From IMG/VR virus record IMGVR_UViG_3300048838_000781, positions 1 to 61,225 of that record: a stretch of DNA of 61,225 bases. One strand, given 5' to 3'. This stretch comes from a virus. Its lineage: Duplodnaviria > Caudoviricetes. This document shows positions 2,702 through 25,245 of the stretch, in pieces. How positions within the stretch are numbered: position 1 is the first letter of the stretch; each line of letters begins with the position of its first letter. Under the pieces are notes generated by a model. It saw only the letters and a program-made list of their open reading frames with translations, ran no database searches and was not told the origin of the DNA. The position numbers were made by a program, and so were the translations under genes.

Positions 2702-2902
2702 ATGGCAGCAACTGAGCCACTCAAGACCGAACCGGAGACAGGCGCGGCAAGGTTCTCAGAACCATTCCTCACCGATGTGAGGAGGTTCCTGCAGGTTCTC
2801 TCGCCGAGGTCGCACGAGCGACGGGTGTTCGAGCTCCTCTCAAAGTACAAGGACCGCGAGAAACCAGTTTCTGGTCCTGGTGGTAGGCGGGCAACCGCCT
2901 AG
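2702..2902 (+). CDS. Small hypothetical protein
   Basis: 66-aa ORF with purine-rich RBS, co-oriented with 755-2644. Confidence 0.45.
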   Translation: MAATEPLKTEPETGAARFSEPFLTDVRRFLQVLSPRSHERRVFELLSKYKDREKPVSGPGGRRATA

Positions 2903-4419
2903 CCTGGTAGCTGGTCGGACGCAGGCCGAGCTATCGGAGTCATTGTCACCCCAGTCACTGCCCACGGAGACGACCCGCGAACCGTGCGGCCGAGCTCATC
3001 CCGCTGCAGCGGAACTCGCTCGAGCTCGACGTCGACCCACTCGACGACCGAAGCGATCAGCCGGCGCTTCTGTGCGTCGGTGAGCCGATGCGGCGACCCG
3101 ACCACGGCTCGCACGGCGGCGGCTGCCCGGCGCAGATCGGTGCCGTCGAGCGAGGCGACGCGCACGAGAGCGACGCGGTGGCGTTCTTCGGCGGCGGCGA
3201 TCGCGGCACGGTACTCCTCGGCCCGCTCGGCGAACTCTGCTGGCGAGATCTCGCCGTCAGCGCGTAGGTCGATCAGCACGGACTGCCGGCGGCGCAGCTT
3301 CTCGATCTCGGCCGCCGCTGCGTCGGCTTCGGCCTGGACCGATCCGAGCTGCTCGGGAGCCTGTGACGCGCGGACGATCTCGTCGAGCATTTCGCCCTCG
3401 ACGAGGCGCACAAACTCAGTCCACACTGCGGCGTTGACGAGTGCCACCGAGACCCAGGGACCGCCCGGCAGCGCGTAGGAGTTCCGTCCCTTCGAACCGT
3501 CGATTGTGGGTAGCCGCCCACCGATCCGGAGCATGCCGGTGAGCATTCCGATCCGGCCGCCGCCGGTCGCACGCTCCCGCAGGGCTCGCTGAGACGCCTC
3601 CCAGGTCTCGCGATCGACGATCGCTTCGTGGGCATCGGGTACGACGATCGCTCTCGACATGTCTGGTGCGTGGTAGCGCTTGCCGGGAACCTGCTTCCAC
3701 GCACCGCTGAATGCGACGCCCAGGTAGGCGGGGTTCTTGAGGATGCTGACGACGGAGGACTTGCACCATCGGGAGCCGCGTCGCGTCCGCGAGCCGTCGG
3801 TGTTGAGCCTTCGGGCGATCTCCTTCGCCGACACCCCGGAGGCCGACCAGGCGAACATCCGCCGCACCACGGCGGCCTCGGCCGGCACGATCTGGAGCGT
3901 TCCGCGCTGCGGGTGTCCCTTGGGCGGATTCTGGTAGCCGAAGGGGCTGATCGATCCCGCGCGCTTGCCTTGCTTCGCCTTCTCACGACGCCCTCGAGTC
4001 GTCCGCTCGCGGATGCGCTCGTACTCTGCACGGTCGACCAGAGACTGGATCCCGAGCATGAAGCGATCATCGATCGAGCCAAGGTCTCGGATCGCACCCT
4101 GGACGATCACCCGCATCTGCCGCTCTCGAAGCTCACGCAGCAGGAGCGCCACCTCGAGTTCGTCGCCGCGGGTCAGCCGGCTCTGCTCGTGCACGTAGAT
4201 CGCGTCGGCTCTGAGATCGCGCACCGCGGCGAGGACCTGCTGGAGCACCGCGCGGTCCTGGACAGCGAGGGCCCCCGACTCGACGCCGCGGAACTCAGCG
4301 ATCGTGGTCCATCCGCTGCGGGTGGCTAGCTCGCGGTAGATCCGCTGCTGCGAGTCGAGGGAGGAGCCTTCGGCGGACTGGACCTCCGTCGAGACGCGGA
4401 AGAGAGCGATCACCCGCAT
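2899..4419 (-). CDS. Large serine recombinase (prophage integrase)
   Basis: RVSTEVQ...SLDSQ catalytic motif, SRLTR, PFGY, ILKNPAYLG, HEAIVDRETWE, C-terminal coiled coil. Confidence 0.95.
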   Translation of the reverse strand: MRVIALFRVSTEVQSAEGSSLDSQQRIYRELATRSGWTTIAEFRGVESGALAVQDRAVLQQVLAAVRDLRADAIYVHEQSRLTRGDELEVALLLRELRERQMRVIVQGAIRDLGSIDDRFMLGIQSLVDRAEYERIRERTTRGRREKAKQGKRAGSISPFGYQNPPKGHPQRGTLQIVPAEAAVVRRMFAWSASGVSAKEIARRLNTDGSRTRRGSRWCKSSVVSILKNPAYLGVAFSGAWKQVPGKRYHAPDMSRAIVVPDAHEAIVDRETWEASQRALRERATGGGRIGMLTGMLRIGGRLPTIDGSKGRNSYALPGGPWVSVALVNAAVWTEFVRLVEGEMLDEIVRASQAPEQLGSVQAEADAAAAEIEKLRRRQSVLIDLRADGEISPAEFAERAEEYRAAIAAAEERHRVALVRVASLDGTDLRRAAAAVRAVVGSPHRLTDAQKRRLIASVVEWVDVELERVPLQRDELGRTVRGSSPWAVTGVTMTPIARPASDQLPG

Positions 4420-16842: not shown

Positions 16843-17540
16843 CACGCAGCCTCCGAGGCCTGGAAGGTGGCGGTGATCGGGGCGGCCGAGTACCAGAATC
16901 CGTGGAGCTGACCGGCGGGATGGATCTTCGCCAGGCCATGCGACTCCATCGCGGCCTCGACCCCGTTCGCGACGCACTCGAAGGCGAGCATCGCGACGGC
17001 GCGGCGGGTGTCCATCTCGTCACGGCTCTCGATCGCACTGCCGGCGATCGCGCACGAACCGTCGCTGCGGAACGTGGTCGACAGATCGCCGCGTCCGCCG
17101 CAGACCTCGACGATCGCGGGGTTCATCCGCTCGCCGTCCGCACTCAGGTAGCCCTTGCGGTAGCCGACGATGAAGAACCGCAGGCCTGCGACCAGGCGGA
17201 ACATGAACGTCGTCTGCTGCCAGAGGCTCACCGTCGCGTTGGCGTTGACGATCTCGACTGCGGTACGTCGAGCCGCTTCGTTCGCGTCGATCTCGAGGTC
17301 GGCCTTGACCTTCGCGAGCAGCTCGTCGGCCATCTCGCGGGCGAGGTCCGAGCGCCGCCACATCGACTCGTTGCCGAGCGGGCCGGCCGCGTCGCAGGCG
17401 AGGTTGCCCGAGAGGGTGATCAGCGCGGCGGCGACGAGCTGGGGATGCGCCCCGTGGTCGAGACCGGCGGCGGCGAGAGCTTCGCGGGTGATGTCTTCCC
17501 GGAGGGCTTCGAGGTCGGTGTTCGGCGTGGTCGTCGGCAT
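16842..17540 (-). CDS. First gene of the leftward early operon, hypothetical
   Basis: AGGAG RBS, directly downstream of the PL-like promoter. Confidence 0.7.
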   Translation of the reverse strand: MPTTTPNTDLEALREDITREALAAAGLDHGAHPQLVAAALITLSGNLACDAAGPLGNESMWRRSDLAREMADELLAKVKADLEIDANEAARRTAVEIVNANATVSLWQQTTFMFRLVAGLRFFIVGYRKGYLSADGERMNPAIVEVCGGRGDLSTTFRSDGSCAIAGSAIESRDEMDTRRAVAMLAFECVANGVEAAMESHGLAKIHPAGQLHGFWYSAAPITATFQASEAA

Positions 17541-17568
17541 CGTCTGGGCTCCTGTTTTGACTGCTGGT

Positions 17569-17645
17569 GTTCCGTTACGGAACTAATCCTAGCGCAACTT
17601 TTCCGTGGCGTCAACAATGGATGCCGCTCATGTTCCGTATCGGAA
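17569..17645. promoter_or_regulatory. OL-like operators
   Basis: GTTCCGTTACGGAAC (17569-17583), TTCCGTGGCGTCA (17601-17613), TTCCGTATCGGAA (17633-17645); 32-bp spacing between the last two. Confidence 0.75.
17586..17614 (-). promoter_or_regulatory. PL-like sigma70 promoter
   Basis: Minus strand TTGACG-17bp-TAGGAT. Confidence 0.8.
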
Positions 17646-17693
17646 ATCTTCACGGGGTACGATTGGCTTCAGCCATTGCCAAAGGAGCCCCGC

Positions 17694-18695
17694 ATGAAGC
17701 GCTTTCTCCCAGTCTTTTTCGTTGTGGCCTTGGGGTCGTTCGGGCTGTCGTCAGCGTTTGGCCAAACTATCGAGGCGTGTAGCGGGCCAGGAAGCGTCCG
17801 TTACGACGACGGGACGTTTGAGGCCGCCTACTACGAATGGGGGTTCACGTTTCCAGAGCCTCCACCATTCCGGACCTACGTGATGGCAATCGATTCACCG
17901 GATCCGGGCAGCCTGTTGACCAAGATCTGCATCGCATGGAACCACTTCCTGTCCGGAGTTGGACCCGCGGATGACTTTTCTTTTGACATCAACATCTGGG
18001 ATTCGAATGGCCCGGGTGGTGGTCCGGGCACACTCTTGGCAAGGCTCAGAAACGTGAATGACGCGCCGTTTCCGCCGCGTCCGTCATGGCGCCAATATGA
18101 CGTTTCATCGCTTGGGATTCGCCCAGCCGGGAGGGTCTTTGTCGGGCCTGTTTGGGCCCCAACCGAGACCGGTCGGGTTCAAATAGCCGCTGACGAGAAC
18201 GGTCCAACTTTCCAGCCCGGATATGGCGGCCGAGTCGAAACGGCAGCATCGACTCCAGATCGAGCGCTGGGAGAGATCGGTGCCTTCCCGAGCTATCGGA
18301 CCCTTGGGATTCGGTCACTCTTTGAGGATACGCAGTCTCAGCAATGCGTCCCGAACGCGAGCACACTCTGCCTCGTCAATGGACGATTCAAGGTCGAGAT
18401 CGCATGGGAGACCAACACCGACTCGGGCGTCGGTCAGGCACGCACGATTCCGGGCGTCGATTTCTCGGGCCTCTTCTGGTTCTTCAACTCGGACAACCTT
18501 GAGATGCTCGTGAAAGTCCTCGACGCCTGCGCGCTCAACCAGAAGTTCTGGGTCTTCTATGCGGCCACGACCAACGTCGGGTTCGACATGACAGTCACCG
18601 ATACCACTACCGGCGTCGAGAAGATCTACCGGAACAATCGCGGCACCGCCGCGCCGCCAGTCCAGGACACCGAAGCGTTCTCCTGCAACCCGTGA
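17694..18695 (+). CDS. Secreted host-like protein (moron) with a Cys-containing C-terminal beta domain
   Basis: AAGGAG RBS, signal peptide MKRFLPVFFVVALG...AFG; C-terminal CVPNASTLCLVNGRFKVE...FWFFNSDNLEMLVKVLDAC...FWVFYAATTNV. Confidence 0.85.
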   Translation: MKRFLPVFFVVALGSFGLSSAFGQTIEACSGPGSVRYDDGTFEAAYYEWGFTFPEPPPFRTYVMAIDSPDPGSLLTKICIAWNHFLSGVGPADDFSFDINIWDSNGPGGGPGTLLARLRNVNDAPFPPRPSWRQYDVSSLGIRPAGRVFVGPVWAPTETGRVQIAADENGPTFQPGYGGRVETAASTPDRALGEIGAFPSYRTLGIRSLFEDTQSQQCVPNASTLCLVNGRFKVEIAWETNTDSGVGQARTIPGVDFSGLFWFFNSDNLEMLVKVLDACALNQKFWVFYAATTNVGFDMTVTDTTTGVEKIYRNNRGTAAPPVQDTEAFSCNP

Positions 18696-18700
18696 GTACC

Positions 18701-19015
18701 ATGAAGACTGCCACCGTCGACGGCAGGCCGGTCTACGAGAGCGCCTACCACGGTCGCCACGATCTCGACTTCATGATCCGTTGTTGCGTCGCAGAACTTG
18801 AGGCTGCAGCGAATCCTTCGAACGCTGGACTGGTCCCGGCTCCGTACTGTTTCCGCCGGGTGATGGTCCTCTCGAGGAAGGCGAAGAACCCGACCCTCGG
18901 CGAGGACTTCCGTCGCCGCTACGTCGAAGCGCTCGAGCAAGCGCTGAGGCATTACCCCGAGAGTGACGTTGCACGAGCGCTCTACCATGAGTTCGCTGGG
19001 GCAGAAGCCACGTGA
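18701..19015 (+). CDS. Hypothetical helical protein
   Basis: ORF with MIRCCVAEL...PAPYCFRRV..LSRKAK. Confidence 0.6.
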   Translation: MKTATVDGRPVYESAYHGRHDLDFMIRCCVAELEAAANPSNAGLVPAPYCFRRVMVLSRKAKNPTLGEDFRRRYVEALEQALRHYPESDVARALYHEFAGAEAT

Positions 19016-19118
19016 GCGACAGATCGCGGCCGGGCGGCAGGCCGAGATCGTGAAGTTCGAGTGCGACTACGACGCGTTGCCGTGAGAGCTGACCCGCAAA
19101 GAGCCCAGGAGACCAGCC

Positions 19119-19663
19119 ATGCACCAAGCCGTCATTCCGCCACCCAAACACGTTGCGGTTTCGTTCTCATCTGAAGTCATCCCGCCAACCATCGAGATCT
19201 TGCTGAAGACCTGCGCGCATCTAGCCAACAGTGGAGTTCAGCACTTGCACCTTCTGATCTCGACTCCAGGCGGCAGCGTGATGCACGGCTTGACCGCGTA
19301 TAACTTCCTGCGCGCACTGCCGCTGAAGTTGACCACGCACAACATCGGCAACGTCGATTCGATCGGAAACGTGATCTTTCTCGCTGGCGAACGCCGCTAT
19401 GCCTGCCCTCACGCGACGTTCATGTTCGCTGGGTCGAGAGAGATCTCAAGGAGAAGGTAGAGTCACTCGTCGCCGACCAGAAGCGGATTGCCAGCGTAAT
19501 GGTCGAGCGCTCCAAGCTCCAGCTTGCTGAGATCGAAGAGATGTTCCTGGAGGGTAGGACCAAAGATCCCCAGTTTGCCCTCGAAAAGGGGATTATCGAA
19601 GAGATCCGAGACGTCCAGCTCCCTCCGGGCACGCCCATAGAGCAGCTCGTATTCCAGCGTTAG
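19119..19663 (+). pseudogene. ClpP-like (S14) peptidase, frameshifted by an internal deletion
   Basis: ISTPGGSV..GLTAYNFL...NVDSIG..IFLAGERR...FMF, break at about 19427, then another frame VERDLKEK...DQKRIA...FALEKGIIEEI to TAG 19661-19663. Confidence 0.8.
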
Positions 19664-19748
19664 AGATTCGTTCGGCGGGAAGAGCGCCGTCAATTCCATG
19701 GTCATCTCCCCCTTCGTTGAATCTAGGATCATACACCTCGATACCGAA

Positions 19749-19937
19749 TCAGCGTTGGCGCTGACGCTGGAGGATCTCAAGCGCGGAGACTTGGCGCTGG
19801 GACAGCTGAATCAGGAGATCCAGTTGCGCGCTGATGCGATCCAAAGCCGCGACGGCTGAAGTCTCACGGCTGACCTGTTCTGCAAGCTCTTGCAGCGGTT
19901 TCGCGTCGATGACAAAGGGCAGCTCGAACGTCGCCAT
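19749..19937 (-). CDS. Small coiled-coil hypothetical protein
   Basis: 62-aa ORF, heptad-like. Confidence 0.4.
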   Translation of the reverse strand: MATFELPFVIDAKPLQELAEQVSRETSAVAALDRISAQLDLLIQLSQRQVSALEILQRQRQR

Positions 19938-20185
19938 GGCTCGGAACGTAGCACGCGGCCGATAGCCGCGTCAAAGCTTCACTCGTCGCCGTCGAGCTTC
20001 TGCTGCACGAGGATCACCTTGCCGATGATCACATCGCGTAGTTGCCGGCCTGAGAGCGGCACCGTGATCGATAGGCATCGGCCGATCGGCTGACCTTGTC
20101 CCGGTTTGACCTCCGTCTGACCCCCATCCAGTAGAGGCCTCGCACGCATGCCGCGTCGCGAAGGACCTCGCTGGAGGACCAGACC

Positions 20186-20386
20186 ATGGTCAACTCTCGT
20201 CGCGTCGTCGCTTCCACGCTCGCCCTCGTCACCGCCCTGACCCTCGCACCCGTCGCTTCCGCGGCCGGCATCGATCAGGGTGGCTGGTGGAGCGCGTTCG
20301 AGCGACTCGCCACCCGCATCGCTCTCCTCGTCGGGATCTCCCCCGACAAGGACGACGGCCGGGCCGACATGGACGGCAACGGTTGA
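20186..20386 (+). CDS. Secreted pre-peptide (candidate signalling peptide)
   Basis: GGAGG RBS; signal peptide ending ASA-A; amphipathic WWSAFERLATRIALLVG; C-terminal DKDDGRADMDGNG. Confidence 0.75.
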   Translation: MVNSRRVVASTLALVTALTLAPVASAAGIDQGGWWSAFERLATRIALLVGISPDKDDGRADMDGNG

Positions 20387-20445
20387 GTACACGTCGGGGC
20401 GGGAAACGTTGCACCCGTTCCCGCTCCGACCTATCATCCCCGGCA

Positions 20446-21552
20446 ATGTCTTCGGACTACGCTAGCCCCTTCCAGCGCGCCTTGACGGATGCGGCTCGAA
20501 CCGCCGCGGAGAGGTCCGCCGACCGCCGCCGGCGAGGTCCCGCGTACCTGATGGCTCGGGCTGAGATCCAGCACGAGGCGAAGAAGGATCCGCGCGTCGG
20601 CTCCCAGCTCGTCGACGAGCTGCTCGACCACTGGTGGAGCCGTCGCTTCGATCCGCCGTTGATCGCCCTCGACGGAGCGAACCAGGCCCTCGAACTGGTC
20701 GAATCGATCGCCGACGTGTGGGACAGCTACGAGGCCGATCGTTTGCGCTCCCGCTGCCGGCTGATTCGAGGAAATGCACTCCGGCAGCTCGGGCGCCACG
20801 ACGAGGCGATGCACGAGCTGCTCGAGGCGGAGGACCTCGCCGACCGCCAGACGCCGGAGGAGGCTCGGTCCCGCGACGTGCGGCTCACCCTACTGCTTGA
20901 TCTCGGTCGCTGGGATGACGCCCTCTGGCTCTCGAGTCGCGTGATCGCCTCATGGAGGCTGCTGCGCGATCCCTCCCGCGTCGAGAACGCACGGCTCCAG
21001 CGAGCTCGGGCCCGACGCCACACCGGCGACGTCTCGGGCGCGCTGATGGACTACTCGAAGCTCTTGCGCACCGCAACGGATCCTCTGATCGTCCTCCTCG
21101 CGTCGCACAACGTCGCCGACATCCTCACGAGCCTGGAGCGCTGGGGAGGAGCCCTCGAAGTCATCGAACTCGCCGAGGAGTATTACCGCGACCACGGCAA
21201 GCCGGTGATTCTCCTTCGCCGCCAATGGCTACTGGGCCGGATTCACGCCGGCCTCGGTGATCCCGATCGCGGCGAGCAGATGCTGATGAAGGTCTACCAG
21301 CAGCAGATCGCCGAGGGCCGACTCGTGGACGCTGCGGAGTGTGCGCTCGACCTCTGCCGGATCTATCGCGACCAGGGCCGCTGGCCGGTGCTGATGCGCA
21401 CCGCGCGAGCCGCCGCCGACCAGCTGGAGCGCGCGGGCGTGAGCCCCGATGCGGTCAAGGCGGTTCAGCTGGTTCGCGACGGCGCCCGTCAGGCCTCGGT
21501 GACGTTTGAGCTGATTCGGCGAGCGCAGGGCCTGATACGGAAGCTCCCATGA
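20446..21552 (+). CDS. TPR-repeat protein (candidate peptide receptor)
   Basis: Repeated helices RGNALRQLGRHDEA, LLLDLGRWDDAL, LLGRIHAGLGDPDRGE, LCRIYRDQGRW; 368 aa from ATG 20446. Confidence 0.85.
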   Translation: MSSDYASPFQRALTDAARTAAERSADRRRRGPAYLMARAEIQHEAKKDPRVGSQLVDELLDHWWSRRFDPPLIALDGANQALELVESIADVWDSYEADRLRSRCRLIRGNALRQLGRHDEAMHELLEAEDLADRQTPEEARSRDVRLTLLLDLGRWDDALWLSSRVIASWRLLRDPSRVENARLQRARARRHTGDVSGALMDYSKLLRTATDPLIVLLASHNVADILTSLERWGGALEVIELAEEYYRDHGKPVILLRRQWLLGRIHAGLGDPDRGEQMLMKVYQQQIAEGRLVDAAECALDLCRIYRDQGRWPVLMRTARAAADQLERAGVSPDAVKAVQLVRDGARQASVTFELIRRAQGLIRKLP

Positions 21553-21737
21553 CGATGGATGCGGGCCGTCCGGATCGCGAGACGGCTCGCAGGCTGATCG
21601 CGGAGATTGCCGAAGAAACTGCCCGAGGCCTGGCTCGCGAGCAGGGCGAACTCAGGACTGCGAGCGGCGGCGACCCGCGGCCGGTCCGGTCCTCGGGGCC
21701 AACTCGCTTGCCAACGCTTCCGCCTTTTTCGGCGTAG
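21549..21737 (+). CDS. Small ORF coupled to the TPR gene, overlapping cI 3' end antisense
   Basis: ATGA overlap with TPR stop; 86-bp convergent overlap with cI. Confidence 0.45.
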   Translation: MTMDAGRPDRETARRLIAEIAEETARGLAREQGELRTASGGDPRPVRSSGPTRLPTLPPFSA

Positions 21738-22119
21738 TGTGCCTCACCGGATCGAAATCCGTAGACTTGGACGACTCTGGACTCCCAAGAAGCTTCAGCA
21801 GGCTCCTCGCTTCTTCTTCGACCGATTGAGACTGAGCACTAAGCTCAGCCGCTCGCGTCACTAGAGCGTCAAGCCGTTCCGAGACTTGCTTCAAGTCCAC
21901 GCTCGACTCGGCCGGGCCCAATGGTTTGAGCCCGATCAAAACATCGGCGCTCAATCGGAGGATTCGGCTCATGGACGCAATAGCGTTTGCATTGGGCTGG
22001 TTGATTCCGCTGATCCACCTGTTAACCGCGGCAGGCGTCACCCCAAGGGCCAGAGCCAGATCGGTCTGGGTCACGCCCCGGTAATCTAGCGCGCGCTGAA
22101 TTGGCCTCGGCTGTTCCAT
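21652..22119 (-). CDS. CI-like XRE repressor without S24 autoprotease domain
   Basis: TQTDLALALGVTPAAVNRWISGINQP HTH, then coiled coil; divergent from cro. Confidence 0.88.
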   Translation of the reverse strand: MEQPRPIQRALDYRGVTQTDLALALGVTPAAVNRWISGINQPNANAIASMSRILRLSADVLIGLKPLGPAESSVDLKQVSERLDALVTRAAELSAQSQSVEEEARSLLKLLGSPESSKSTDFDPVRHTTPKKAEALASELAPRTGPAAGRRRSQS

Positions 22120-22191
22120 GGCGTCACAACTATAGCCGTCGCCTATTGACTTTGCGGAACAGCTCGCGCTACGCTCTATTCCGTTATGGAA
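22114..22191. promoter_or_regulatory. OR/PR/PRM-like switch region
   Basis: TTGACT(22146)-18bp-TACGCT; minus-strand TATAGT 9 nt before the cI ATG; operator-like TTCCATGGCGTCA, TGACTTTGCGGAA, TTCCGTTATGGAA. Confidence 0.7.
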
Positions 22192-22443
22192 TACCGTCGA
22201 CTCAGCGCAGTTCTTGCCTCTCACGGCCTCTCCCAGAGTGACCTTGCCGCAGAGTTGGGGGTGAGGCCTGCCGCCGTGTCTCGAAAGATCGGGGGGTCCC
22301 GTCCTTGGCGCGACGCCGAGATGAGGATTGTCGTTTCCTGGCTGTCCGGGAAGGGGGTGTTCGAGTCCCTCGACTCCCTCTTCGGAGCCGAGGCAGGCCA
22401 GGCGGACGTCGTTTCCACTCCCGCCGAGAACAAGGCGGCCTGA
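22186..22443 (+). CDS. Cro-like XRE regulator
   Basis: LSQSDLAAELGVRPAAVSRKIGG HTH; ends in KAA. Confidence 0.85.
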   Translation: MEYRRLSAVLASHGLSQSDLAAELGVRPAAVSRKIGGSRPWRDAEMRIVVSWLSGKGVFESLDSLFGAEAGQADVVSTPAENKAA

Positions 22444-22459
22444 CGTGGGGGCTTTGCCG

Positions 22460-22666
22460 ATGTCAGCCTCAGCGCGCATCGTCGGGGCCGCTTTCTCGAT
22501 TGCGCTTGGCCTGGCTCTCGACCAGTCGCTGAGCCCACGCTGCTACGTCCACCTCGAATCGAACCGAAGCACCGGCCGCGGGAATGCCCTCGCCGCCGTC
22601 TTGCCCGCGCGGATCGCCGCTCCCGTCGAATCCCTCGACCGGTTGCCGGCGCCGCCTGCCAAATAG
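22460..22666 (+). CDS. Small hypothetical protein
   Basis: ORF between cro and the CII-like gene. Confidence 0.35.
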   Translation: MSASARIVGAAFSIALGLALDQSLSPRCYVHLESNRSTGRGNALAAVLPARIAAPVESLDRLPAPPAK

Positions 22667-22679
22667 GAGCAGATCGCCC

Positions 22680-23264
22680 ATGCCGAGACCCAGGCTCCCA
22701 GTGTACGCCTCAGACGTCAATGCACTTCGAGACCGCGACTCGCAGGAGCGGGAGGAGATGCTGCAAGCGCTCTCCACTTGTGCACAGCGCCAGCGGCCGA
22801 TCAACGGCCAGGCGTCGCCGACTGCCGTGCGGTCGATCGCCAATCGCCTCCACGTCGTCGAGGAGGCCGTCTACCACCAGTGCGACGGGCAGACCGTTGG
22901 CAACCCGCTCGTCGAGCTGTGCGCCTGGATCGACGGAGCTCGCGCCGCGGGCAAGCCGGACGAGCACGCGCTGGCGCCCCTCGCCTGGCTCATCCGGCGC
23001 TACCAGCCGCAGACCACCACCGCCGCCTCTCCTGCCGAGCTGACCAGCTCGTGCACCTCGGCTCTGTCGAGCGCGGCCGCCGTCGTGCAGTCGGCTCTCG
23101 AGTCGATCGCCGAGGATGGTCCCGGAGGCGCTTCGGCGACGCCGGCCGAGCTGAAGGCATACCGGCAAGGTCGCCTCTCCCTCGATCGCCGGCTAGCCGC
23201 ACTCGATCAACAGATGGAAGAGCGTGCGAAGGCGCATCGTCCGCGTGGGGAGCAGGTGCAGTGA
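22680..23264 (+). CDS. CII-like regulatory protein (putative)
   Basis: Position after cro; AGGAG RBS; helical with HTH-like VRSIANRLHVVEEAVY. Confidence 0.55.
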   Translation: MPRPRLPVYASDVNALRDRDSQEREEMLQALSTCAQRQRPINGQASPTAVRSIANRLHVVEEAVYHQCDGQTVGNPLVELCAWIDGARAAGKPDEHALAPLAWLIRRYQPQTTTAASPAELTSSCTSALSSAAAVVQSALESIAEDGPGGASATPAELKAYRQGRLSLDRRLAALDQQMEERAKAHRPRGEQVQ

Positions 23265-23539
23265 GCGTCCCGGCGTACTTCAAGCTGGTCACGTGCCTGA
23301 TGCGGCACTTCGACGGCGAGACGGTCCCGAAACAGCTCGCCGTCAAGGTGGACGGGGATCGGCTGTACTACCACGCGGACGAGCTGGTCCGAGAGTCGGA
23401 CGAGACGATCGACTGTGCGCGCTTGATGGACCTGTACTCGGCGCTGTTCTGGTGCCGATTGAACGGTCCTGCGACGGTCTACCGCATCGCCGGCTGCGAT
23501 TGGTCCCTGGTCATTCCCAACGCGGAGCTGGCTCGATGA
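23261..23539 (+). CDS. Hypothetical protein
   Basis: GTGA/ATGA overlaps on both sides. Confidence 0.55.
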   Translation: MSVPAYFKLVTCLMRHFDGETVPKQLAVKVDGDRLYYHADELVRESDETIDCARLMDLYSALFWCRLNGPATVYRIAGCDWSLVIPNAELAR

Positions 23540-25245
23540 CCGCCGCAGCCGTCCTGCTGCCGATGGACGCAGAGCCCGAAGCGCCCCAGTCGGCACCGAC
23601 CGCCTACGACGACATCGAGGCCATGGTCTCAGCGCGCAACGCAGCGATCGAGCACTGGCGCGCGTTCTTCGTCGCCCTGGAGGGCGCCCACGAGCACCGG
23701 CGGCTCGCCCAGGACACGATGATGCAGGCCTGCCAGGGGTTCGGCTTCTCCTCGCACGTTGGAGACGACAGCATCTCGGCGTTCGCCAAGGCGACCGAGC
23801 TGCCGAGCATCGGTCGGCTCTTCTCGACCGCGGTGCAGCTTGTCGACATTCGGATGTGGTCCGCTGTCCTCGATCGCTCCGGCCTCGAGTACCTGATGGA
23901 CAAGCAGGCCAAGCAGGAGTGGTCGAAGCAACTCGCCTTCATCGCTGGTCCCGAGATCGATCCGCGAACGCCAGACGACGCGCTGGAGCCGATCGGCGGC
24001 GTCCCCGGAAAGCTCCCGCCGTTCACCGCCGAGAACGTCCGCGCCAGTATCCGCCAGTGGCGTGAGGAGTCGATCGAGACGTTCGCCCGAGGAGTCGCGA
24101 ACGTGTTCAGCGCGCTCGACTCCCGCTTCAAGTCGCACGACGGATTCAAGGTCGGCTCGCGCGTGATCCTCGGCAGGATGTTCTCCGAGTGGGGATCCTC
24201 GCGGTACGAGACCATCGATTCCTTCGTCGACGTCGAGCGTGCCTTCATGGTCCTGGACGGCGTCCCGCGGCCCGAGATCGATCCTTGGCGAGGAGTCACC
24301 GACGAGGACCTCGCCAAGATGCACCCGAAGCTCCGTGCCTGCTACCACCAGGTGGAAGGGGAAACCGCGTGGCACTTCGGCCTGTCAGGGATCCTGCGGC
24401 GCCGTCGGTCCACTCCGCACCAGTCCGAGCACGAGTCTCCCTACATGAAGGTGCGCGTGTTCAAGAACGGCAACGCGCACCTGTGGTTCAAGCGCCCGGA
24501 CCTCGTGGCTTCGATCAACGCCCTGCTCGCCGACTACTACGGCGGAGCGCTGGGCTACGGCCGTGAGAGCTACGACGAGGACGGGCAGGTCGTCGAGCCC
24601 GCCAAGACCTCGTTGCTCGACTCCGCGGTCGATCGGCCGGCAGCGAAGAACCTCGGCTTCTACCAGACCCCGCCCGAGCTCGCCGCGCGAGTGATCGAGC
24701 TTGCAGGGATCGCAGGCGGCCATCGGGTCTTGGAGCCATCGGCTGGCACCGGAGCGCTCATCTCCGCGGCCCTCAAGAGTCTGGCCCGGACCGGCAAGGG
24801 GATCGGTCCGCTGCTCGCCAGGGCGTTCGATCTCGAGGAAGTCGGCGGCCCCGTTCAGATCGTTGCAGTCGAGCTCGATCCCAAGCGGGCGGCCGGGCTG
24901 ATGGGAAGCCATCCTTGGATCCGCGTCGTACCGGGTGACTTCCTCTCGATCGAGCCTGAGCAGCTCGGCGAGTTCGACCGGATCGTGATGAACCCGCCGT
25001 TCGACCGTGGGCGAGACCTCGACCACGTCGCTCACGCTCTCCGGTTCCTCAAGCCCGGCGGCACCCTGGTTTCGATCACGTCGGCGTCTGCTCGGTATTC
25101 GTCGACGTCTCGCGGCTCGGAGTTCCGCAAGCGCCTCGAGTCCCTGCCGCACCGATGGGCGGACCTGCCGCCAGGCTCGTTCAAAGACGCCGGAACGATG
25201 GTCAACACCTGCCTGCTTCGAGTGGGGACCAACTCATGGTTCTGA
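23536..25245 (+). CDS. DUF4942-like domain fused to an amino (N6A/N4C) DNA methyltransferase
   Basis: FKSHDGFKVGSRVIL, VRVFKNGNAHLWF, FYQTP, VLEPSAGTG, IVMNPPF, FKDAGTMVNT. Confidence 0.88.
   Translation: MTAAAVLLPMDAEPEAPQSAPTAYDDIEAMVSARNAAIEHWRAFFVALEGAHEHRRLAQDTMMQACQGFGFSSHVGDDSISAFAKATELPSIGRLFSTAVQLVDIRMWSAVLDRSGLEYLMDKQAKQEWSKQLAFIAGPEIDPRTPDDALEPIGGVPGKLPPFTAENVRASIRQWREESIETFARGVANVFSALDSRFKSHDGFKVGSRVILGRMFSEWGSSRYETIDSFVDVERAFMVLDGVPRPEIDPWRGVTDEDLAKMHPKLRACYHQVEGETAWHFGLSGILRRRRSTPHQSEHESPYMKVRVFKNGNAHLWFKRPDLVASINALLADYYGGALGYGRESYDEDGQVVEPAKTSLLDSAVDRPAAKNLGFYQTPPELAARVIELAGIAGGHRVLEPSAGTGALISAALKSLARTGKGIGPLLARAFDLEEVGGPVQIVAVELDPKRAAGLMGSHPWIRVVPGDFLSIEPEQLGEFDRIVMNPPFDRGRDLDHVAHALRFLKPGGTLVSITSASARYSSTSRGSEFRKRLESLPHRWADLPPGSFKDAGTMVNTCLLRVGTNSWF

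Follow-up and report, generated by a model that had tools for sequence, protein, structure and literature searches.

A conserved gene pair encoding a small protein of exported type and a cytoplasmic TPR protein beside a cI-like gene in a phage genome

The viral record IMGVR_UViG_3300048838_000781, a 61,225-bp sequence of 65.5% GC that was analysed over its whole length and is termed the window here, carries next to a cI-like repressor gene a gene for a 66-residue small protein, pep66, followed on the same strand by a gene for a 368-residue tetratricopeptide repeat (TPR) protein. That the two genes are conserved neighbours, one for a small protein of exported type and the other for a cytoplasmic TPR protein, is strongly supported by the recurrence of this arrangement in chromosomes of Acidobacteriota. 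At a more tentative level, which we place somewhat short of an even chance, pep66 and the TPR protein would form a cognate signal/receptor pair that was captured as a unit from a chromosomal family of Thermoanaerobaculia/Holophagales, diderm members of the Acidobacteriota.

Pairing of peptide and TPR genes in Acidobacteriota chromosomes

A word-indexed search returned four relatives of the phage TPR protein only, two of which are zf-HC2 plus TPR proteins of Thermoanaerobaculia, and a HMMER (phmmer) scan of 1.84 billion representatives gave 1252 matches at E ≤ 0.001 and 100 at E ≤ 1e-10. A pattern scan covering one genome per prokaryotic species retrieved 75 loci, all of them (75/75) in Acidobacteriota and belonging to Thermoanaerobaculia, Holophagales or unclassified Acidobacteriota, with tblastn matches to the phage TPR protein. 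At the level of the class, a profile search detected the family in 179 of 301 sampled genomes at E ≤ 1e-20, many of which hold at least five copies; these figures include the unpublished-flagged genomes G007, G107, G138, G178 and G182, and become 174 of 296 when the five are left out.

The small open reading frames (ORFs) at the 75 loci reveal how tightly the two genes are linked. A strict filter, requiring DP[ND]G within 60 residues of the C-terminus as well as a hydrophobic N-terminus, was applied to 4899 ORFs of 30-140 residues in all frames; 32 qualified and every one of these adjoins a TPR homologue, 27 directly upstream on the same strand and five otherwise adjacent. The pairing of peptide and TPR genes is thus far beyond chance. 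With a wider motif filter, a peptide gene adjoins the TPR gene in 35 of 73 loci, and tblastn with pep66 itself recovers small ORFs directly upstream of the TPR genes at L016 and L051 (E values of 0.003 and 0.037, respectively, in a small database).

Regulatory genes of one kind recur around these pairs. Clustering of 399 neighbouring ORFs yielded XRE-type helix-turn-helix (HTH) proteins as both of the two largest clusters. The first comprises 24 loci, in 19 of which the HTH gene is convergent with the TPR gene and either abuts its 3' end or extends into it (-94 to +43 nt), and the second comprises 13 loci where a divergent HTH gene is situated 600-790 nt upstream of the TPR gene, the peptide gene being enclosed by the two. 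XRE-HTH genes are neighbours at 27 of the 73 loci, against 4 of 73 for ECF sigma genes. The phage layout, in which the peptide gene is followed by a TPR gene converging on cI, corresponds to the commonest chromosomal topology.

A first-pass annotation of the region had pointed to peptide/TPR genes of this kind in Thermoanaerobaculia chromosomes and had allowed for a captured host module. Such genes are indeed present there, a module captured from the host lineage is an apt description, and the linkage of TPR genes with such peptides, on which the earlier proposal depended, holds among the relatives. The same annotation suggested an independently assembled switch, which is unlikely, as the pair was probably inherited as a unit from an existing chromosomal family. 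Relatives of the module in other phages did not appear in two viral-contig scans and one metagenome scan, and the search for a related prophage produced, with the portal protein in 401 genomes of the class, one distant match at 32% identity and, in another search, none in three (0/3).

The small protein and its chromosomal family

In pep66, residues 5-6 are Arg-Arg, residues 7-21 form a hydrophobic core and residues 24-26 are Ala-Ser-Ala; the signal-peptide-like part, judged only from hydropathy (own script) and the AxA rule, extends over residues 1-26 (nt 20186-20263). A Trp-rich amphipathic helix, GGWWSAFERLATRIALLVG, occupies about residues 33-50 (nt 20282-20335), and the C-terminal unit, KDDGRADMDGNG, comprises residues 55-66 (nt 20348-20383); the tail reads SPDKDDGRADMDGNG and is followed by the stop codon, the protein thus ending in ...DMDGNG. 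The codon-position GC of pep66 is 0.69/0.55/0.84, and this third-position excess argues for a real gene. Among 681 ORFs of at least 25 residues scanned in the window, pep66 is the sole one to combine the motif with a good coding signal; one further ORF, of low third-position GC, ends in DPDGDAA. With 66 residues and a gene that adjoins a TPR gene and is preceded by GGAGG, pep66 has the size of 10-100 residues expected of an RRNPP pro-peptide, and by simple rules the Arg pair, hydrophobic core and Ala-Ser-Ala make it a putative secreted one. Neither pep66 nor the chromosomal peptides match a family in Pfam, NCBIfam, PHROG or PADLOC. A relative with 87% identity, P0158, is located on a short Logan contig, and the ESM Atlas clusters nearest to pep66 are unnamed small Acidobacteriota proteins (0.86-0.87), which is a lead only.

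The 35 chromosomal peptides are built in three parts: the start is signal-like and ends in AxA, a Trp-rich helix (W-x-W-L...) comes next, and a unit of ten residues, D-x-G-x-x-[I/M]-D-P-[N/D]-G, then occurs one to three times. The core of the unit reads DPNG in 39 of 56 motifs, DPDG in 11 and DGNG in 2; position -1 is Ile in 32 and Met in 8, position -4 is Gly in 47 and position -6 is Asp in 35. Of 36 peptides, 13 terminate exactly with the last unit, and in 23 this unit is no more than three residues away from the C-terminus. All three parts are present in pep66, including a C-terminal D-x-G-x-x-[IM]-D-[PG]-N-G, and its gene precedes the TPR gene in the same orientation, as in the family; its ending is comparable to the ...QIDGNG of the chromosomal peptide at L027. 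A Ca-binding loop, which the first-pass annotation had read into the D-x-D-G-N-G tail, was ruled out because the family consensus has Pro within the motif.

In one clade (L002, L004, L010, L016, L043 and L051), the peptides encoded upstream of the TPR genes carry repeats of the form K-C-D-x-G-x-x-I-D-P-N-G-C-P-K. These Cys-framed units may constitute disulfide-closed loops, in which case either the signal would be cyclic or the exported protein would be structured.

The TPR protein and its relatives

The only domain identified by Pfam in the 368-residue protein is TPR_12 (34.9 bits, cut-off of 30.1). Neither an HTH nor an enzyme domain was detected in Pfam, and the AlphaFold2 model described below likewise agrees with the all-TPR protein that had been annotated. 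A search of Pfam at E ≤ 0.1 gave generic TPR matches only and no sequence kinship to Rap, Rgg, NprR, PlcR, PrgX or AimR; the protein has no PHROG, NCBIfam or PADLOC family either, and with PADLOC silent on both members the pair falls into no defence-system family. The gene caller starts the protein at an internal Met (333 residues). The start at 20446 is preferred here, since conservation of residues 1-35 extends to the relatives P0007 and P0010 and the model shows this stretch as a helix. The protein lacks a hydrophobic segment (maximum 19-residue Kyte-Doolittle value of 1.18) and is thus taken as cytoplasmic, and its size, together with a TPR superhelix, falls within the range of RRNPP receptors (about 250-500 residues, cytoplasmic). 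The receptors of the family in general show no signal peptide or membrane segment. A transmembrane anti-sigma reading of the family was rejected: windows above 1.6 occur in 21 of 153 representatives but fall in conserved TPR helices, and the phage peak stays below that value.

Most chromosomal receptors begin with a zf-HC2-type motif, a regular expression for H-x(2-6)-C-x2-C being found in 79 of 153 representatives, and zf-HC2 (PF13490) was confirmed by Pfam in P0008, P0009 and L003. The alignment of the phage protein to the chromosomal zf-HC2-TPR proteins begins at the linker helix behind the zinc finger, and the N-terminal finger itself (H-x3-C-x2-C), present in these relatives, is missing from the phage protein. 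Some tandem paralogues display an XRE-HTH N-terminus instead, identified by Pfam in L026 and L031 and by eye in L045, L052, L063 and L070. Neither N-terminal domain is found in the phage protein, P0007, P0010 and L064. The closest stand-alone relatives, P0007 (44% identity), P0010 and P0053, are represented by short Logan contigs only. Residues N110, R113 and W261 are nearly invariant across the family alignment. One chromosomal relative gave a weak, sub-threshold match to the NsdA family of NCBIfam (24 bits, cut-off of 75).

Two to three TPR-family genes stand in tandem at L026, L031, L045, L052, L058, L063 and L070, often with a zf-HC2-type or unclassified member followed by one of XRE-HTH type. 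To judge by these sequences, the family appears to diversify through local duplication and swapping of N-terminal domains.

Fold and predicted peptide recognition

The AlphaFold2 model of the TPR protein, obtained with an alignment of 127 rows, is an all-helical superhelix with a predicted local distance difference test score (pLDDT) of 95.5 and a predicted template modelling score (pTM) of 0.89. Foldseek returned LGN/Pins first, followed by RapJ-PhrC, RapF, RapH, pLS20 Rap and the Rap of phage phi3T. In an independent structure search, the highest scores were again those of LGN (4wng; Z score of 24.6 and root mean square deviation (rmsd) of 3.8 over 292 aligned residues) and Pins (Z score of 23.7). 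The best bacterial match was NprR-NprX (4gpk; Z score of 20.9 and rmsd of 4.4 over 287 aligned residues), and further matches included RapH (20.2), RapI (19.8), pLS20 Rap (19.7), PlcR (15.5) and the TPR secretion chaperone 3wxx (14.7). Sequence identity is 10-13% to the Rap/NprR structures and 14-17% to LGN. The modelled fold is best described as a peptide-binding TPR superhelix type, to which RRNPP receptors are the closest bacterial structures, a description that is no proof of kinship to RRNPP.

Co-folding of the TPR protein with the C-terminal residues of the small protein, suggested as a check in the first-pass annotation, was carried out with residues 28-66 of pep66 and gave a score of 0.73, the median of three runs (0.06, 0.77 and 0.73), and all three controls scored 0.00. 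The co-folding mark is reached by 58 of 80 solved complexes and by 2 of 110 mismatched pairs, a calibration that is rough here since our own alignment was used; the runs agreed in at least 22% of contacts and the partner pLDDT was at least 45. Confident contacts involve pep66 residues 55-66, the tightest being those of D61-G66, and on the TPR protein residues 67-68, 110, 144-151, 181-188, 214-225, 258, 261, 295 and 298. The last 12 residues of pep66 are thus predicted to sit in the TPR groove.

Conserved polar residues (N110, H221, N222, R258, W261) are enriched at this interface, where 5 of 10 reach at least 2.8 bits as opposed to 40 of 308 elsewhere (Fisher one-sided p = 0.007, post hoc). 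Such an enrichment would be expected if invariant residues gripped the fixed DPNG core and variable ones read the positions that vary among the peptides.

Proposed mechanism and competing explanations

As a working model, pep66 would be exported by means of its signal peptide and trimmed, freeing a C-terminal unit of about 12 residues, roughly KDDGRADMDGNG, which an oligopeptide importer would then carry into the cytoplasm of the producing cell or of its neighbours. OppA-type binding proteins (PF00496) occur in three of three host-lineage genomes checked; they are a generic component and show only that importers exist. In the cytoplasm, the unit is predicted by co-folding to bind the concave groove of the TPR superhelix, with contacts that include the five conserved polar residues named above. 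As an output domain, whether DNA-binding or zinc-finger, is missing from the phage receptor, it would act by protein-protein contact, like Rap, and its most likely target would be the convergent cI-like repressor or an XRE regulator of the host. Pfam identifies no S24 peptidase domain in the cI-like protein, so an anti-repressor-type input would be a sensible form of control. Gene position suggests that the lysis/lysogeny switch or superinfection behaviour would depend on the peptide concentration.

A broader version of this model is possible rather than probable. Thermoanaerobaculia/Holophagales would run a large RRNPP-analogous superfamily of peptide quorum-sensing systems that arose in a diderm phylum, with exported D-x-G-x-x-I-D-P-N-G signals and TPR receptors that have zf-HC2, XRE-HTH or stand-alone outputs and work with neighbouring XRE repressors, and the phage would have wired one such pair to a non-cleavable cI-type repressor, arriving at an arbitrium-like decision between lysis and lysogeny that depends on density, outside Bacillota.

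Several observations weigh against a cognate signal/receptor pair acting on the phage switch. On the structural side, one of the three co-folding runs gave the score of 0.06, the peptide itself has a low pLDDT (46-60), and conservation over the interface as a whole does not exceed that of the remaining protein (permutation p of 0.76-0.80). General TPR proteins such as subunits of the anaphase-promoting complex (APC/C) reach Z scores of 19.8-20.0, similar to NprR and Rap, and eukaryotic LGN scores higher, so the fold does not single out RRNPP. On the side of the peptides, only about half of the loci yield one with the filters used, 9 of 36 peptides have 14-29 residues beyond the last motif, and the ORF of P0158 runs 47 residues beyond MDGNG. 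Cys residues flank the unit in 16 of 36 peptides, which suggests periplasmic disulfide loops and would fit a structured exported protein no less than a linear imported signal. Finally, the cI-like protein shares a generic HTH only with the regulators that flank the chromosomal pairs, and its link to the phage pair is one of position alone.

In an alternative explanation that we consider unlikely, the two would be a signalling pair that serves the phage against its host and not in phage-phage counting. The proximity to cI would be incidental, as accessory genes often adjoin immunity regions, and the receptor would soak up DPNG-type peptides of the host or have a dominant-negative effect on host receptors as their partner, or else the phage peptide would mimic a host signal. 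The alignment of the phage protein from just past zf-HC2 has the appearance of a receptor module without its output, the host-lineage genomes hold many paralogous pairs (at least five in many of them), a chromosomal peptide shares the DGNG ending, and a likely accessory gene, encoding a secreted protein with a host-like C-terminal domain, is located 1.5 kb upstream. However, stand-alone receptors recur in P0007, P0010 and L064, the last of which is chromosomal and has its own peptide as well as a convergent HTH gene, so the short form is a working architecture and not just a truncation. In addition, the phage keeps a peptide gene with a good ribosome-binding site, for which a pure sink would have no need.

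Predicted binding is silent on where the two partners meet, and they might do so before export. The TPR protein would then bind the precursor, still in the cytoplasm, by its C-terminal motif, in the manner of a TPR class II secretion chaperone, and report on export or synthesis, with neither an extracellular signal nor re-import of a peptide. TPR chaperones of secreted proteins are present among the weaker fold matches (3wxx), and the Cys-flanked motifs are suggestive of a folded periplasmic protein. Such an intracellular switch is nevertheless distinctly improbable: ordinary signal-like N-termini usually mean rapid export without a dedicated chaperone, secretion-system genes do not recur in the family neighbourhoods, and the conserved unit is repeated and often placed at the extreme C-terminus, as in pro-peptides that are cut into signals.

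It is very unlikely that the two proteins do not bind at all, the small ORF encoding a periplasmic or surface protein (e.g. metal-binding or structural), the TPR protein being the regulator of its gene or merely co-regulated with it and the phage copy a passenger. In favour of this reading, adjacent genes often are co-regulated without mutual binding, the D-x-D-G-N-G tail resembles the start of an EF-hand loop, and one co-folding run scored 0.06. Against it, the D-P-N-G consensus with its Pro is not that of an EF-hand, and the C-terminus of the protein cuts the putative loop short. Two of the three runs scored 0.73-0.77 against 0.00 for the controls, and the predicted contact includes conserved polar residues of the groove.

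Comparison with known systems

The signal/receptor reading brings the phage pair closest to Rap-Phr. In both, an all-TPR cytoplasmic receptor without HTH acts on partner proteins and an adjacent small gene encodes a pro-peptide that bears a signal peptide and has the signal in its C-terminal part (the action on partners, the secretion and the signal being predictions for the phage pair), and copies occur on mobile elements; the folds are also alike, as seen in the Z scores of RapH, RapI and pLS20 Rap and in the Foldseek matches to RapJ-PhrC and phi3T Rap. In contrast, no sequence relationship was detected, the host belongs to Acidobacteriota and not to Bacillota, and the peptide gene precedes the receptor gene, its product combining a Trp-rich helix with the D-x-G-x-x-I-D-P-N-G unit that is repeated in the family. 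The relatives, moreover, carry zf-HC2 or XRE-HTH N-termini.

With arbitrium (AimR-AimP-AimX of SPbeta-like Bacillus phages) the pair shares the location of a phage pro-peptide/TPR pair at a lysogeny control region, and in both the pro-peptide is expected to yield the signal from its C-terminal end. AimR, however, has an N-terminal HTH and binds DNA upstream of aimX, whereas no HTH was found in the phage receptor; the gene order is reversed, an AimX analogue (orf62, see below) is unsupported, the module derives from a host chromosomal family and not from one specific to phages, and no relationship of sequence was found. NprR-NprX and PlcR-PapR resemble the family in that NprR is the best bacterial fold match and that L026 and L031 share its XRE-HTH plus TPR build. 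They differ in that the phage copy lacks the HTH, PlcR is a weaker match, no sequence relationship was found and the phylum is another.

Since the homology tests failed and the HTH of AimR is absent, the pair should not, on sequence grounds, be filed as a member of RRNPP or arbitrium; it would function like Rap-Phr and is positioned like arbitrium. The label RRNPP-like in the first-pass annotation is tenable in its operational sense, which is that of RRNPP_detector, with pep66 as a putative secreted propeptide, and falls at the level of sequence membership. As given in excerpts of the source paper, RRNPP_detector defines such a system as a TPR receptor of 250-500 residues with an adjacent secreted propeptide of 10-100 residues, and its survey took in only Firmicutes genomes and NCBI viruses (PMC10075063). 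Excerpts of a 2025 review give arbitrium as the sole phage peptide system (PMC11945551). The literature searched places RRNPP in Bacillota and their mobile elements and includes no paper joining RRNPP with Acidobacteria; searches on IDPNG, MDPNG and DPNG retrieved unrelated papers only and no description of such a system. If the signal/receptor reading is true, peptide quorum sensing would reach a diderm, mostly uncultured phylum of soil and sediment, zf-HC2 would be added as a receptor output type together with a new signal motif, and the phage would offer, among phages of diderm hosts, a first candidate case of lysogeny control guided by a peptide.

Two further groups are similar in part of their structure. 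Most chromosomal relatives start with zf-HC2, as do the ZAS anti-sigma factors (RsrA, ChrR). The phage protein lacks this domain, the scarcity of ECF sigma genes relative to XRE-HTH genes at the chromosomal loci sets the family apart, and we know of no ZAS protein with a C-terminal TPR sensor and a paired secreted peptide. In the eukaryotic LGN/Pins, the best structural match, eight TPR repeats form a superhelix whose inner groove takes up extended peptides, as is predicted for the phage protein; low identity and an unrelated function restrict the match to fold type.

The immunity region and its surroundings

The window is judged to derive from a temperate phage from its serine integrase, large terminase and portal genes; recombination and replication genes are also present. 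Five ORFs lie within 20186-22443, namely those of pep66, the TPR protein, orf62, the cI-like protein and the Cro-like protein (Table 1), and the pep66 ORF ends 59 nt upstream of the TPR gene. The cI-like gene is convergent on the TPR gene and divergent from the Cro-like gene. A simple consensus scan of 19600-22700 found no promoter or terminator, and no operator repeat common to the cI/cro intergenic region and the region upstream of pep66 was found.

Table 1. Coordinates of the pair, the immunity genes and the integrase in the window
Feature	Coordinates	Strand	Basis or remark
Serine integrase	2899-4419	-	Marker of temperate phage
Shine-Dalgarno-like GGAGG	20173-20177	+	8 nt before pep66 ATG; read from sequence
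pep66, 66-aa putative secreted pro-peptide	20186-20386	+	ORF translation, codon-position GC, hydropathy, chromosomal family
TPR protein, 368 aa, candidate peptide receptor	20446-21552	+	Pfam TPR_12, AlphaFold2 model, alignment to relatives
orf62, 62 aa, doubtful gene	21549-21737	+	ATG overlaps TPR stop (ATGA)
cI-like XRE-family HTH repressor, 155 aa from Met at 22119	21652-22119	-	HTH_3 38.8 bits
Divergent cI-like/cro-like intergenic region, 66 bp, presumed switch region	22120-22185	.	Flanking gene coordinates
Cro-like small HTH protein, 85 aa	22186-22443	+	PHROG repressor families

The three ORFs of the first-pass annotation were recovered where it had placed them, the 66-residue one with its ribosome-binding site, signal-like start, helix and tail. 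Its claim of three co-oriented genes holds for pep66 and the TPR protein; the third, orf62, does have an ATG that overlaps the stop of the TPR gene and does have its last 86 nt antisense to the 3' end of the cI-like gene, as had been noted, and yet is unverified as a gene. Its codon-position GC (0.70/0.65/0.71) lacks the third-position excess, no match was found in Pfam, PHROG, NCBIfam or PADLOC, and ORFs of such size are frequent, 79 of at least 40 residues being present in 17000-25000. The AimX-like role once suggested for it gains no support from this weak coding signal and lack of relatives. The stretch may matter instead as a site of read-through transcription into cI. At L003, L007, L014 and L017, the convergent XRE-HTH gene runs antisense over the final 91-94 nt of the TPR gene; this conserved overlap, comparable to the one between orf62 and cI, could produce mutual transcriptional interference.

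The cI-like protein belongs to the transcriptional regulator and repressor families of PHROG and has no close relative in the protein collection searched. Its start was provisionally taken as Met at 22119, leaving the 66-bp divergent region. The public gene call is of 190 residues (P0159; 21652-22224, minus strand), with a start that would overlap the start of the cro-like gene. The Cro-like protein matches phrog_2328 at 2.1e-07 and HTH_3 at 21 bits, below the cut-off.

Upstream of the pair, an ORF of 342 residues (17667-18695, plus strand) has a signal-peptide-like start and no Pfam family, and is the likely accessory gene mentioned above. For its C-terminal part, about 115 codons (18345-18692), the class that contains Thermoanaerobaculia holds matching chromosomal DNA in 20 of 401 genomes, with 69-83% nucleotide identity and several matches per genome. 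By its sequence, it looks like a phage accessory gene carrying a host-lineage C-terminal domain, and this domain lends support to the host assignment of the phage. Between this ORF and pep66, at 19119-19663 (plus strand), lies a Clp-protease-like fragment of 113 residues that matches positions 39-111 of the 182-position PF00574 model; it stops early and is followed by a 54-residue ORF in another frame, the whole being situated some 500-1100 nt before pep66. The gene is either broken or affected by a frameshift that arose in sequencing. Directly downstream of the immunity region, at 23536-25245 (plus strand), a DUF4942 domain (139.9 bits) is fused to an N6-adenine-methyltransferase-like domain.

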